A DNA stretch of 64,000 nt from Gammaproteobacteria bacterium (GCA_965238175.1 CBDEGZ010000003.1:1952001-2016000); one strand, 5' to 3'. Counted from the first letter of the stretch, positions 51,145 through 58,924 are shown. The notes: generated by a model from the sequence alone, not told the origin. Program-made: numbers and translations.

Positions 51145-51465
51145 TTATCTAAACCACGCTGAATAATTATATATTCCCAAGATAACCACCAATTCCAATG
51201 CAAAAATAAGAAGTAGAAACTTAATATAATTATTTCTAATCTTAATATAACTTTCAAAGTATTGAATATCCTTTTTATCGATATCCTTCTTCCATGAACT
51301 ATTGAAAGGCATGATATATTTCAAATGAGAAGAGATAGAATATTTTTTAATTATTTCTTTAGGCAAAATATCTTTAAAAGAGATATAAAATAATAGTATT
51401 ACATACCCAACTATCTGAACAAAGATCAATAGAAAAAAAGTATAAACTAAAAAACGTAATGACAT
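51145..51465 (-). CDS. putative immunity protein of the Rhs toxin (two TM helices)
   Basis: Very AT-rich, 22 bp downstream of the toxin ORF, hydrophobic segments at both ends. Confidence 0.7.
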   Translation of the reverse strand: MSLRFLVYTFFLLIFVQIVGYVILLFYISFKDILPKEIIKKYSISSHLKYIMPFNSSWKKDIDKKDIQYFESYIKIRNNYIKFLLLIFALELVVILGIYNYSAWFR

Positions 51466-51487
51466 ATCGTTTACGCCTACATTAATC

Positions 51488-52300
51488 TTAAAGAGCTAAA
51501 AGATAAGGAGCAATTGTTGCACAGGTAGCACCGGCAACAGCGATTACTCCAGCCAGACCAAGAGACTCACCGCCAATGTTCAATTGTAATTTTGCAGTTT
51601 CAAGCGCTAATTCCTGGATTTTTGCATTAAATGGTAATTTTTCTGCTGCAGTCAGACATTTATCCTTCTCTGCTTCTAAGTCAGAAATTTTTGCTTGAAG
51701 TTCTTCATATCTTAATAAGGCACTAGATATTGTGGAAATTGATCCTGACTTGCTATAGGCAGCTAAGGCTCCGCAAGCAAGGCCTGCCGCTATTCCAACA
51801 GGAGTTATCAACCCACTTCTGTCCGTTCTAGTGATTGGATTTCCACTCACATACCCATAAGTATTAATCCCACCCCTCAACCCAATCGGGTCACTCGTAA
51901 CATACCGACCAATACTCGGATCATAAGTGCGAAAGTAATTATAGTGCAGCCCCGTCTCCGCATCAAAATACTGCCCAGGGAAGCGCACATTATTCGTCAC
52001 CGTCTCTGTCGTCACAGTTGCCTTCCCAAACGGATCATACCCCGCCTGCCAGACAATATTCTGGTTTGCATCCGTCAGCACCTGTGGGGTGCCCAGATGA
52101 TCGTTGTGGTAGTAACTGATCTCTGTCGCTGAAGCACTCGCCGTTAATCCCGCTATAAACAATAGTCTGAACATTTTACTGAGTGTTTTACCTACTTCCA
52201 TTATTAAACCTGTCATGGGTTTTCTTCCTTTCATGGCGATTACTGCTGCCGCTTGTCTTTTTTGATCAATCATGTCGTTGTTTGTTTTCGTCTGTCTCAT
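51488..52300 (-). CDS. Rhs core-end (RHS repeat-associated core) plus C-terminal toxin tip, with its own signal-like N-terminus
   Basis: MFRLLFIAGLTASASA then YYHNDHLGTP...RFPGQYFDAETGLHYNYFRTYDPSIGRYVTSDPIGL.GGINTYGYV.GNPITRTDRSG, then a ~107-aa variable tip. Confidence 0.9.
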   Translation of the reverse strand: MRQTKTNNDMIDQKRQAAAVIAMKGRKPMTGLIMEVGKTLSKMFRLLFIAGLTASASATEISYYHNDHLGTPQVLTDANQNIVWQAGYDPFGKATVTTETVTNNVRFPGQYFDAETGLHYNYFRTYDPSIGRYVTSDPIGLRGGINTYGYVSGNPITRTDRSGLITPVGIAAGLACGALAAYSKSGSISTISSALLRYEELQAKISDLEAEKDKCLTAAEKLPFNAKIQELALETAKLQLNIGGESLGLAGVIAVAGATCATIAPYLLAL

Positions 52301-52302
52301 GA

Positions 52303-55785: not shown

Positions 55786-55858
55786 GCGGGTTAGGCGGCC
55801 GATGCCATTTTGTTGGTTGTTGTTTTCGTCATAGGTGTAGATGACATTGAGGCTGCTA

Positions 55859-58800
55859 TCACCAGGGGTAGATCACACTGGTGAGTCGGTTTAGTGCATC
55901 GTAATTGTAGTTTGTGGTGATGCTTCTGGCATCAGTTTGGCTTTTGCGGTTACCAGCACTGTCATAGGTGTAGGTGGTGGTGCCGGTGTCTGGACTGTCA
56001 AGTGTGAGCAAGTCACCCAGGGCGTTGTAGGTGTAGTGGGTCTCCAAGCTTTCGGGATCGGTAACTTTGATCAGTTGGTCTAGCGCGTTGTAGTCGTAGG
56101 TGGTGGTGATGTCATCGGTCCCGTTGCTGGCGATGCGGATCTGGGTGACTGCAACCAGTCGATTGAGCGAATCGTAAAGTGACTGGCTGGTATTATTAAG
56201 CGTCAGTGGATCGACGGTTTTAGCCGCAGCAATGTTGCTACCAGTGTTTCTTGGATCGGTCATGGCAGTCTGATTGCCATTTAGGTCGTAGGCATAGCGT
56301 GTCAGTTGACCTTGTCCGCCAATCAACAGCAGCAATTGACTCAGTTGATCGTATTCACGTTCTAATAATCGTGTGATGTTACCGGCATTATTTTTAGTTT
56401 CTTCTTTGGTGCGATTACCCATAAGATCCAATGTGTAATGGATCGTATTACCCAGGTTATCGGTGATATCAGTCAGTCGATGAGCTGCATCGTAGGTGTA
56501 ATCGATAAAGGCATTAGTTGGTAAGGTCAGTTTTGTTAATTGACCGACGTTGTCATAATCAAAATCGGTGGTATTGCCATCCACTGTTCGACTAGTTAAC
56601 CAACCTCTTGGGTGATAGGTCAGTGTTGTGACCAAGCCATTCGGATCGGTAATCGTTTGTGGTCGGCCATTAGCGTCATGATTGGAGAAAGTGGTCTCAT
56701 GACTTAAGGCGTTAGTGATCTTAGTCAGATTGCCCGTCGTTGCTTCGTAGTCCATCGTCGTCGTATCCGTCACATTGACGCGTGAACCATTGATGGTTTT
56801 TAACTGTTTTGTATTAGGATCATAGGTATACGTAGTTAGCTGAGATGCACCAGATGATGGATCTTCCACATTTTGGGTGTGCACCTGCCCGTTCTGGTAG
56901 TGATCATATACAGTGGATTTTATATGTATCCAGCTGCTTAAGGCCGTATCACAGCTACTTGGGCTTAGGTTGCTTTGATCGGCAGGTGGAGTATAAACAT
57001 CTGACTCAGTTGGTATGTGATAAGCCGTATCCCAAGACGTGTAAGTCATGCGTGACTCTATGGTACTGTAACCATCAATGCGGCAGGTTTGTTTACCTTG
57101 AGAATCATGCTCAAATCGTGTGATGTTGCCGTTATAGTCAATTTGGCTAGCAAGAAAACCATTTGCATCGTAGCTATAGTTTTGTATCTGACTATTTTTA
57201 CAACTCAGACACCGATCTCCGGTCAAAGATTTAACGCGAGGCGATCCATTAATAGACTCAAACGTGTAAGTATGAGTCCCTCCTAATGAGGCATCGGTGA
57301 CATCCGTAGTCCCATCATCGTTGTATACAAACTCTACCCTCTCCACACCATCAGCATGCTCCGATAATTTTGCACGACCTTCTGCATCATATTCCCAACG
57401 GGCAAAATCAGCACCGTTTTCGTCAACCATGCCTGTTAAAGCATGATGAAAAAGCCCACTGCCATAACTATAAACTTTACTGCTGTTATCTTGATAGGTC
57501 ACTTCTAAAAGTTGGCCACCGTTTGCCTTGTACTTGATTAGACCATCTGGTGTTAATACCGAAGCGAGAAATCCCTTTGAGCTATATCCGAAAATCAGTT
57601 CTCGACCAAACGGACCGATAACTTTATCAAGCGTTTCAGGGTTGCCATCTCCACCGTTTTGTTCAGATAGATTATAAGTTAACGTCTGGGTATAATCTTC
57701 GCGACTAACGATAGTAAGAAGTTTTCCCGTATTATCGTATGTTTCTTGAGTATCGTCGTTATCAATGAATAGCCAACCACCAACAAGCTGTTCAAGTGTA
57801 ACCCTTGGGTCAGAAACACTTATCCAGGAACCTCCACTTTTCTCGAAAAACAGCAAGCTGCCATTAGGACGACTGACTGTCATCACCCCGCCTTGTTCTA
57901 ATAATTCACTATATGTATTAACATTATTTACTGATTGGGATGGGTTATTGGAGCGAACAGTCAGAAAAGCCGGAGCCTGGCCATCACCAGAAATCTTACA
58001 CAACTCGCCTTGTAAGCTTGCTGTCGTATTTGAACGTAGCCCTTTTATTGTTTTACCTTTGATTTGATTCCAGCCAGCTTCACAGGCAGCTTGAGGAGTA
58101 GCAAACAGACCGGATCGTTGCCCCCCTTCGGTATAGTACCCTGTAGTTAACTGGGCTATGCTTAAATTCTGAGGTGTATCCCGTCGTTCTATAGGCGCCT
58201 CACCGACTCCACGTGAATATGTATGACGCCAACCAAAGGCGACATTCATACCGGTTTTATTAGCCCCCTGACTATTGTAGTAACGTCGAAATTCAATCCC
58301 ATGAGTAAGACTGCTTTTGTAGTCTGTTTCTACCTGGTACTTATTCCCTGATGAAGGAATACACGGGTTTCCTTCACCACATTTAGCTTCAGGACTCACA
58401 GGCTCTTCAGGTTCTATGTAATACCCATCCTCATAGGCTTTAACACAGGCATTTATTTCTCCTGGCGGAGTGGCGTTGGGGAAGTATTTAGCTACAGAAC
58501 CACTTGGACAATAGCGCCTCATATAAATTCGTCTCAATGGATTCTGTGTACAATACCCTCCTGCACAAACTACAGGGACATGATCAGTTTCATAAGGGGT
58601 ATCAACCATAAATGAACAGGTGATGTTAGGGATATTTGGATCTTCTAAAGCATCTATCATTGCCTGCTTGTCAAAGCATTCAGCGTGCGCTTCTGGGTTA
58701 GGGCGACCATTAAAATAATTTGAGTACCACGCAGCTGTTATCTGCGCAATACTGGCATATGACTCTGCAAACGAGATCTTATTTGGCCCTACGTTATGAT

Positions 58801-58924
58801 GTTCATAATAATATTCCATGGGGAATTCGATAGTCTCTGCGCTTACCTGCGTAGTATGAAAAAGTGATGTGAATAGTAGTAAGCCAACTAATAAACTATT
58901 TAATGTGTAAACAAACATAAGCAT
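55859..58924 (-). CDS. Rhs/YD-repeat protein, 5' portion (signal peptide, Cys-rich domain, DUF6531-like domain, YD repeats); joined to 52303-55785 by a 1-bp frameshift
   Basis: AGGA RBS before ATG 58924; signal ...TTQVSA; GNPC..SSGNKYQ.ETDY...FRRYYNS...FGWRHTY; many YD repeats. Removing one G from GGGG (55865-68) fuses the frames. Confidence 0.85.
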   Translation of the reverse strand: MLMFVYTLNSLLVGLLLFTSLFHTTQVSAETIEFPMEYYYEHHNVGPNKISFAESYASIAQITAAWYSNYFNGRPNPEAHAECFDKQAMIDALEDPNIPNITCSFMVDTPYETDHVPVVCAGGYCTQNPLRRIYMRRYCPSGSVAKYFPNATPPGEINACVKAYEDGYYIEPEEPVSPEAKCGEGNPCIPSSGNKYQVETDYKSSLTHGIEFRRYYNSQGANKTGMNVAFGWRHTYSRGVGEAPIERRDTPQNLSIAQLTTGYYTEGGQRSGLFATPQAACEAGWNQIKGKTIKGLRSNTTASLQGELCKISGDGQAPAFLTVRSNNPSQSVNNVNTYSELLEQGGVMTVSRPNGSLLFFEKSGGSWISVSDPRVTLEQLVGGWLFIDNDDTQETYDNTGKLLTIVSREDYTQTLTYNLSEQNGGDGNPETLDKVIGPFGRELIFGYSSKGFLASVLTPDGLIKYKANGGQLLEVTYQDNSSKVYSYGSGLFHHALTGMVDENGADFARWEYDAEGRAKLSEHADGVERVEFVYNDDGTTDVTDASLGGTHTYTFESINGSPRVKSLTGDRCLSCKNSQIQNYSYDANGFLASQIDYNGNITRFEHDSQGKQTCRIDGYSTIESRMTYTSWDTAYHIPTESDVYTPPADQSNLSPSSCDTALSSWIHIKSTVYDHYQNGQVHTQNVEDPSSGASQLTTYTYDPNTKQLKTINGSRVNVTDTTTMDYEATTGNLTKITNALSHETTFSNHDANGRPQTITDPNGLVTTLTYHPRGWLTSRTVDGNTTDFDYDNVGQLTKLTLPTNAFIDYTYDAAHRLTDITDNLGNTIHYTLDLMGNRTKEETKNNAGNITRLLEREYDQLSQLLLLIGGQGQLTRYAYDLNGNQTAMTDPRNTGSNIAAAKTVDPLTLNNTSQSLYDSLNRLVAVTQIRIASNGTDDITTTYDYNALDQLIKVTDPESLETHYTYNALGDLLTLDSPDTGTTTYTYDSAGNRKSQTDARSITTNYNYDALNRLTSVIYPW

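Follow-up and report, generated by a model that had tools for sequence, protein, structure and literature searches.

A candidate Sec-exported Rhs toxin encoded as separate shell and core–toxin genes in a gammaproteobacterium

The usual picture of an Rhs or Tc cocoon is of one chain, or of a cytoplasmic TcB/TcC pair, that folds around its own C-terminal toxin. Canonical single-chain Rhs effectors, which are linked to type VI secretion (T6SS; Rhs/RhsA/Tse5-type cocoons), comprise a YD-repeat shell, a core with a DPxGL autoprotease motif and a variable toxin, with an immunity gene alongside. The stretch of DNA analysed here (64,000 nucleotides (nt) of a Gammaproteobacteria bacterium, GCA_965238175.1 CBDEGZ010000003.1:1952001-2016000; hereafter the window) contains an Rhs locus in which the RHS core is not contiguous with the shell in one polypeptide, but forms a separate open reading frame (ORF) behind a stop codon and a leader. 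The question raised by this locus is whether it is a broken gene or a toxin made in parts. On balance, sequence and modelling favor, with somewhat better than even confidence, a Sec-exported Rhs (YD-repeat) toxin built from separate polypeptides, for which we infer export, cleavage, assembly, encapsulation, binding and toxicity. Other bacteria show this arrangement too, and the locus therefore resembles a genuine toxin of several subunits more than a broken gene.

Anatomy of the shell and core genes

Four consecutive ORFs of 1065, 1160, 270 and 106 amino acids (aa) lie on the minus strand, as do the parts of these genes described in this section. The first (59056–55859) has a probable start at M45 (58924), from which a hydrophobic, Sec-like leader, MLMFVYTLNSLLVGLLLFTSLFHTTQVSA/E, is called. 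It carries DUF6531 and eight RHS repeats (PF05593, E 1.4e-49, and PF20148, E 1.9e-06, in Pfam), covers positions 494–654 of the NF041261 model and ends in VIYPW*. The YD (RHS) repeats of the shell are matched a second time by PF05593 (E 1.1e-10) and also by TIGR01643, and the last of them (54919–55861) end in KEYIFLNGTLLAQ, at residues ∼277–289 of the second ORF (55785–52303, listed start ATG 55785). The shell gene then passes into ∼860 aa in which four Golvesin_C domains, which are like carbohydrate-binding modules (PF25275, E 1.2e-91, overlapping CBM_4_9), alternate with three immunoglobulin-like Big_7 domains. This C-terminal tail (52306–54897) is followed by the TAA stop of the shell gene at 52305–52303. 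At the DNA level it is made of tandem units, with four copies at a spacing of 720 nt and 92–100% identity (300-nt reference); Tandem Repeats Finder reported no tandem repeat, because its longest period is 500. The G+C content is ∼0.53 in the repeat units versus 0.34–0.36 over the toxin and immunity end. The domains of the tail probably bind a target surface. A Pfam scan of the shell ORF gave no match to PF03527.

The missing core is found on the next ORF. The TAA is followed by TC and then by ATG 52300, which opens a frame of 270 aa (52300–51488) containing MFRLLFIAGLTASASA/TEISYYHNDHLGTP, then DPIGL and a tail of ∼105 aa. This ORF matches PF03527 (E 6.8e-15), TIGR03696 (E 4.8e-28) and positions 1153–1261 of the 1261 in NF041261, so that the final stretch of the RHS core model, ∼109 positions, falls on the small ORF. 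The model is divided at 1152/1153 between the two genes, at the shell/core boundary. The region that holds TEISYYHNDHLGTP and DPIGL (51809–52126) is the C-terminal plug and autoprotease part of an Rhs shell, an assignment to which the co-fold described below also contributes. The start in use is probably M29 (ATG 52216, 86 nt past the stop and preceded by AAGGAAG at a fitting distance) rather than ATG 52300; M29 is preferred because the homologue P0003 begins at the residue aligned to it. From M29, a predicted Sec signal peptide, MTGLIMEVGKTLSKMFRLLFIAGLTASASA (52127–52216; a heuristic call), shows a basic n-region, a hydrophobic core of nine residues and ASA.

The variable domain after DPIGL (51488–51808, including the stop) has ∼105 aa, with two Gly/Ala-rich hydrophobic helices around a coiled-coil stretch. 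It is common to the homologues P0004, P0008, P0010 and P0015, but has no match in Pfam or NCBIfam, and its best score against a protein atlas, 0.82, is below the meaningful level. The 106-aa ORF that follows (51145–51465), likewise without a Pfam or NCBIfam match, has hydrophobic N- and C-terminal segments and is a candidate immunity factor by its position and by the different ORF found at that place in a paralogous locus. The variable tail is probably a toxin that acts on membranes, and the 106-aa protein would be the membrane-located immunity partner to it.

Much of this anatomy had been read from the window by an earlier note on the same DNA, which described a large shell gene with a Sec-like signal, a switch after KEYIFLNGTLLAQ into ∼850 aa of carbohydrate-binding-like and immunoglobulin-like repeats, a stop at 52303 and a separate core/toxin ORF with a hydrophobic stretch and an AxA site just before the core motif. 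All of these elements are present, and the core end that the note had found to be absent from the shell lies on the next ORF as it proposed. Two details needed correction: the "large gene" is two ORFs in the assembly, split by an extra base at 55864, and the abutment TAA TC ATG, although present, probably does not mark the start of the small protein.

Recurrence of the split

The same genome contains a paralogous locus, L008, with ORFs of 687, 1565 and 262 aa, all of which begin with a signal-like leader. The stop, leader and core at its small ORF are those found in the window, and the two small ORFs are identical up to ∼residue 141; the sequence after DPIGL and the downstream ORF then both differ between the two loci, and neither has a family match. 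A shared leader and core joined to different toxin and immunity modules fits an exchangeable second subunit. The L008 shell is itself in two genes: the 687-aa piece consists of a leader, DUF6531 and the first YD repeats, and the 1565-aa piece opens with a leader of its own, MKTTPTFLRMTLRLLVTLIVPLTIISQPVDA, immediately ahead of RSTSYTYD, the point at which the window gene is fused. The two loci share a block of 4971 nt at 94.6% identity. Identity is mosaic (window 51400–57000 versus L008 7801–13600), with 0–4 differences per 200 nt over 52001–54000 and 24–37 per 200 nt over 56001–56800, a pattern that suggests gene conversion between the copies. Differences fall mostly at synonymous sites, with a dN/dS ratio of 0.12–0.20 among the repeat units and of 0.06–0.14 when the shell and core of one locus are compared with those of the other; the locus is under purifying selection. 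The neighbors of L008 include a remnant of an RHS core, a fragment of an IS200-like (REP-associated) transposase and an IS4-like transposase (L008:1773-2120, 5935-7357).

A scan of species-representative genomes yielded 77 loci, and the same split is found among them. In Hahella sp. CCB-MM4 (L049), N-terminal pieces of 514 and 523 aa are accompanied by an 809-aa piece with a leader, RHS repeats and a C-terminal Golvesin_C domain, and by a leader–core ORF of 283 aa; the design matches that of the window. L092 has a 1539-aa gene with DUF6531 and RHS repeats and without a core, then a leader–core ORF, and L036 has pieces of 529 and 1156 aa, also without a core, before such an ORF. A metagenome contig, L101, holds a 1514-aa YD gene lacking a core, followed again by a leader–core ORF. 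Outside this genome, the combination of a core-less shell with a leader–core ORF was counted in Hahella, in three loci of metagenome-assembled genomes (MAGs) according to one tally, and in one metagenome contig. When both loci of this genome are included, a complete core-less shell precedes 6 of the 10 leader–core ORFs whose upstream sequence could be read. The genus and class relatives yielded the core, and in them the leader was not found outside this genome. Leader–core ORFs are a recurrent minority class. We propose a putative class of multi-chain Sec-exported Rhs systems, recognizable by a signal-like leader that opens each downstream piece at a shell boundary and by a core-less shell followed by leader, core and toxin, to which the window, L008, L049, L092, L036 and L101 would belong. 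The recurrence of the split in L008 and in other genomes also speaks against the possibility, named in the earlier note as one that would undo its proposal, that homologues are always single-chain and the locus a one-off broken allele.

Relatives also show what surrounds the point of the break. In L035, L039, L050, L056 and others, a single chain carries Golvesin_C between its shell and its core, and the break in the window therefore sits in a tolerated surface linker. The varied domains found in this linker among relatives make it a hot spot at which modules are inserted. In Undibacterium hunanense (L087) the cut comes one step sooner: the shell ends in YIYLEGVPVVVAK*, and the next gene encodes a leader, Big_7, core and toxin. 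L067 (173-4243) is an unbroken ORF that has hydrophobic segments and, immediately ahead of the core, a signal-like stretch. The C-terminal end of its shell is a hydrophobic, membrane-anchor-like domain, and L101 (5463-10843) has the same arrangement split into two genes. Four single-chain loci (L030, L044, L045 and L046) carry a dockerin-like segment (DxNxDGxLNxxD...) in the linker before the core, ∼150 nt before 10020–10080.

A second split, further upstream, is commoner still than the one between shell and core. It was seen by eye in L035, L039, L050, L056 (Halieaceae), L066 (Marinobacterium stanieri), L079 (a Cellvibrionaceae MAG), L097 (Pseudomonas sp. NCHU5216), L032 and L094, with L087 also counted, and consists of an N-terminal piece of 510–810 aa with a leader, a stop, and a second piece with a leader of its own that ends immediately ahead of xWxYTYN...DGPRTD. 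The second piece of the Halieaceae is a single chain of shell, Golvesin_C, core and toxin. We relied on these loci read by eye; an automated walk over upstream pieces, which found at least two pieces for 18 of 87 cores, is rough and includes false joins. At several loci, two or three alternative N-terminal pieces of this size, with signal-like leaders, stand in tandem before one shell/core gene (L032:306-5162, L097:4754-8071, L049:4339-7533, L094:493-7952), and they look like interchangeable first subunits.

Short homologues of the small ORF were collected in a search limited to 148–473 aa, in which 8000 candidates were scored, 4879 reached E ≤ 1e-5 and the best 120 were examined. In 69 of these best 120, a signal-like leader ends 1–5 residues before the core motif (YYHNDHLGTP), and ∼4 more look alike by eye; in ∼14 the core is joined immediately to Golvesin_C, and ∼18 show YD repeats of the ordinary kind. 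Applied to the long ORFs of this genome as a control, the same heuristic called 209 of 1291 N-termini (16%) and 69 of 1270 internal windows starting with M (5%). On a FastTree tree of 202 core domains, from which five listed proteins without a recognizable motif and partial matches had been left out, the signal-bearing state requires 24 changes versus a mean of 61.8 and a minimum of 50 in 500 shuffles, and one clade of 40 (support 45) holds 37 signal-bearing cores. Related rows share labels, and the tree therefore shows persistence in lineages and nothing more.

Co-folding, mechanism and competing explanations

The earlier note had suggested co-folding as a way to see whether the core closes the shell. 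We co-folded the second shell piece of the paralog (residues 52–700, 10-row alignment) with the mature core (P0001 residues 50–155, 42-row alignment). The tool had been calibrated on 157 solved complexes, of which 116 reached the mark, and on 215 mismatched pairs, of which 2 did. The pair gave an ipSAE of 0.91 (0.91, 0.91 and 0.93 in the individual runs), and each of the three controls gave 0.00. At least 98% of contacts are common to the runs, and the partner has a pLDDT of 90 or more. Contacts are tightest between shell residues 690–697, the LLAQ strand, and residues 50–55 of P0001 (TEISYY), so that the N-terminus of the core sits on the last strand of the shell. In the model, the end of the shell and the core of the small ORF are two sides of a known fold.

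The best-supported interpretation of these results is a toxin whose parts would meet after export. The large subunit would consist of a signal peptide, an N-terminal region with DUF6531, a YD shell and, in place of the RHS core, a binding tail. In the small subunit (52216–51488), cleavage at ASA/TE would put the mature N-terminus exactly where the missing core begins. Both chains would pass the inner membrane via Sec; in the periplasm, the first strands of the core would pair with the last YD strand of the shell, and the cocoon would close with the toxin inside. The small subunit would then act as an exchangeable toxin cartridge. Two chains exported separately and assembling in trans, with a second subunit open to exchange, is what the earlier note had proposed, and the recurrence, the differing toxins and the co-fold speak for it; as to the number of chains, there are often three and not two. 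Beyond that note are also the frameshift at 55864 and the Golvesin_C domain fused between shell and core in single chains of relatives.

A wider proposal falls, in our judgement, a little short of an even chance: that many environmental Proteobacteria assemble periplasmic Rhs cocoons from two or three Sec-exported subunits (an N-terminal plug piece, often in two or three tandem alternatives; a YD shell with a surface-binding tail; and a cartridge of signal peptide, core and toxin), swapping parts as whole subunits and not by recombination within one gene, with the Xanthomonas bacteriocin Bcn-A as the first studied member. If so, a cocoon could be closed in trans after export, Gram-negative bacteria would have a T6SS-independent route for Rhs toxins, and toxin diversity would be shuffled as small free-standing genes. 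The proposal would also explain why Bcn-A needs a small signal-bearing ORF. For annotation, the thousands of short "RHS repeat-associated core" proteins look like fragments, and many of them may be complete subunits.

The frameshift bears on the copy in the window. Alignment to the intact paralog, which reads YPGDSS, shows one extra base at 55864 and two adjacent substitutions; the first ORF stops at VIYPW*, and coding goes on in another frame as ...SSLNVIYTYDENNNQQNGIGRLTRMTDASGS. A check of read-derived (Logan) contigs over 55300–56500 drew on three runs from one sample of one study, as contigs only, and the runs are not independent of the assembly because they may be its own source. All three contigs covering 55864 lack the extra base and carry the paralog alleles at 55868 and 55872, and the window version of 55864–55952 was found in no read-derived contig. 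One contig (X3, record 9) has window alleles at 55645–55708 and may switch between the two copies. Between the two loci, dN/dS is 0.09 just upstream of 55864 and 0.14 downstream; it is low on both sides, and the frameshift, if real, is therefore very recent. The extra base could be a fault of the assembly or a newly arisen lesion. In the latter case, the window cartridge could still serve the intact paralogous shell, because the paralog's own partner has an identical leader and core.

These data also bear on the reading of the locus as a decaying one, in which a gene that was once single-chain has been broken by a frameshift and an in-frame stop, leaving the 270-aa ORF as a leftover that is not made or is not used. 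The assembly does contain the frameshift, the region is variable and holds a HipBA module together with a resolvase and a transposase-like gene, and the mosaic identity with the paralog suggests ongoing recombination. However, the junction of stop and leader is identical in the intact paralog and has analogues in other genera, dN/dS remains low around the frameshift and in the repeats, none of the three contigs has the extra base, and leaders with signal-peptide features precede the core in over half of the best 120 short homologues. We therefore consider decay rather improbable. An error of assembly in the junction or in the repeat block is far less probable still: repeats of 720 nt at such high identity, together with a near-identical paralog, are hard to assemble, and the read-derived contigs lack the window version of 55864–55952, but the same junction was assembled twice in this genome with different flanks and equivalent junctions occur in unrelated assemblies.

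Alternatively, the small protein could act alone, as a Sec-exported pre-toxin whose RHS core is only a self-cleaving release domain, next to a YD protein that is an independent adhesin. L041, in which the leader–core ORF has unrelated genes upstream, and L034, L064 and L028, in which it stands behind short binding-domain ORFs only, speak for this, and the contigs of most short homologues are too short to show a shell. Yet the break falls exactly at the shell/core boundary, the co-fold separates the pair from its controls, and Bcn-A needs both its RHS gene and ORF4 (PMC7259588). In addition, shell genes that stand beside leader–core ORFs without a core of their own would be open cocoons, which counts against a small protein working by itself. 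We regard independent action as unlikely. Translational joining, by frameshifting or readthrough at TAA TC ATG, into one chain with an internal hydrophobic segment could be imagined from the 2-nt gap between the stop and the first ATG, and in L067 one natural ORF holds hydrophobic segments and, before the core, a signal-like stretch. It was rejected, and we consider it highly improbable: a TAA in the frame of the small ORF lies three codons upstream of its ATG, no standard slippery site was seen, spacings and overlaps at the junction differ in other genomes, and the homologue start aligned to M29 lies well past the stop.

Several observations weigh against separate subunits that close in trans. 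The shell gene of the window is two ORFs in the assembly, and with a frameshift and no leader on the downstream shell ORF, this copy may be dead. Leader–core ORFs are rare among all cores (7 of 86 in the genome scan and 1 of 74 in the metagenome scan). At L041 there is no shell, and at L034, L064 and L028 the preceding short ORF ends in a PPC, He_PIG or F5/8-type-C domain; such cores may therefore act alone or be orphan cassettes. The leader calls come from a home-made heuristic of hydrophobicity and AxA sites and not from SignalP, the 57% leader rate rests on a length-limited search that favors short forms, and the core tree is weakly supported, with relatives that are not independent. The co-fold covered the second half of the shell only, and since single-chain Rhs structures have been solved, its pass may stem from likeness to them. 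As for the route of export, TssC (PF05943) and PAAR (PF05488) have no match in the genome, which is 97.7% complete; this extends to the whole genome the earlier remark that the window lacks T6SS genes, and fits the Sec-type leaders. The L and M components for type II secretion (T2SS) also had no match in the genome, so that the analysis found no route across the outer membrane; six secretins were matched, and the match to T2SS K is weak and its family unspecific.

Relation to known systems and surroundings of the locus

The separate-subunit toxin proposed here shares with canonical Rhs effectors a YD shell, a core with DPxGL, a variable C-terminal part, a downstream candidate immunity gene and modules that differ between loci. 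It departs from them in that core and toxin form their own gene with a predicted signal peptide, the shell ends in binding domains, and the leaders look to be of Sec type with no link to PAAR or VgrG. TcB/TcC is a YD cocoon of two polypeptides, the second of which carries core and toxin, and in this it is alike; the Tc cocoon is split in mid-shell, whereas the split here is at the shell/core boundary. TcB has SpvB and beta-propeller domains, and Tc proteins are without signal peptides and need a TcA partner; the window ORFs carry Sec-like leaders and have no Pfam match to SpvB or a beta-propeller, the only matches to PF03534 being at C3:620630 and C3:914745.

WapA is a Sec-dependent single-chain YD toxin. 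Bacterial teneurin-like proteins combine an FN-plug, an NHL propeller and a YD shell in one chain (PMC13018210). WapA and the teneurin-like proteins resemble the present locus in having a Sec signal, a YD shell around a small C-terminal toxin for which the core motif is the site of cleavage, and an immunity gene downstream, which is a candidate here. Unlike the divided chain found here, they are one polypeptide, and a separate signal-bearing core gene is not described for them; NHL had no Pfam match in the window ORFs. The T2SS/Sec class of RHS toxins is single-chain in the tabulation of Zhang et al. (PMC3482391). Orphan Rhs-CT modules are similar in being short ORFs that begin near the core and supply alternative toxins and immunity genes, and L034, L064 and L028 resemble such cassettes. 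Orphan modules normally keep a stretch of YD-repeat coding and are without a start or export signal (P0008, L011, L014), whereas here the predicted signal peptide ends 1–5 residues before the core motif. Our literature search found no paper that describes a class in which the RHS core is encoded separately and bears a signal.

The closest likeness is to Bcn-A of Xanthomonas perforans, a precedent at the genetic level (PMC7259588). Its locus comprises ORFA, a 1398-aa RHS-family gene, and ORF2–5. ORF4 is a separate gene of ∼290 aa, the product of which has a signal peptide at its N-terminus and is similar to WapA, RhsA and Tc proteins; ORF5 is the immunity gene. Activity was lost on deletion of ORFA, ORF2 or ORF4, or of xpsD, and the authors took ORF4 for a helper (PMC7259588). 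Both systems thus have a large RHS gene, a small signal-bearing Rhs-like gene and an immunity gene directly downstream, which at our locus is a candidate; ORF4 has hydrophobic helices after ∼residue 148, as at this locus, and Bcn-A is described as secreted and not T6SS-linked, which we count as a further likeness (PMC7259588). It differs in having two small ORFs (124 and 100 aa) between the shell and ORF4, and ORFA is described as being without a signal sequence, unlike the shell here (PMC7259588). By analogy, ORF4 would be a core-plus-toxin subunit, the presence of an RHS core in it being taken from the wording of the paper.

The locus occupies a variable island between a photolyase gene (45702–47117) and a release factor 3 gene (61799–63394). 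A toxin–antitoxin pair, a HipB-like helix-turn-helix (HTH) gene and a HipA kinase gene, lies just downstream (47435–49043), and a resolvase (61079–61636) and a transposase-like HTH gene (63540–63998) flank it. Elsewhere in the same genome, two further loci (L009:577-15418, which is G000:C3:615577-630418, and L010:53-8999) each have a Golvesin_C ORF followed by a giant ORF with an SpvB domain (3331 and 2153 aa, respectively). The Golvesin_C ORFs are 1599 aa in L009 and 812–829 aa in L010, where the edge of the locus truncates the frame; in full, the two frames measure 1621 and 1361 aa. Two RHS core motifs lie within the 3331-aa ORF of L009.

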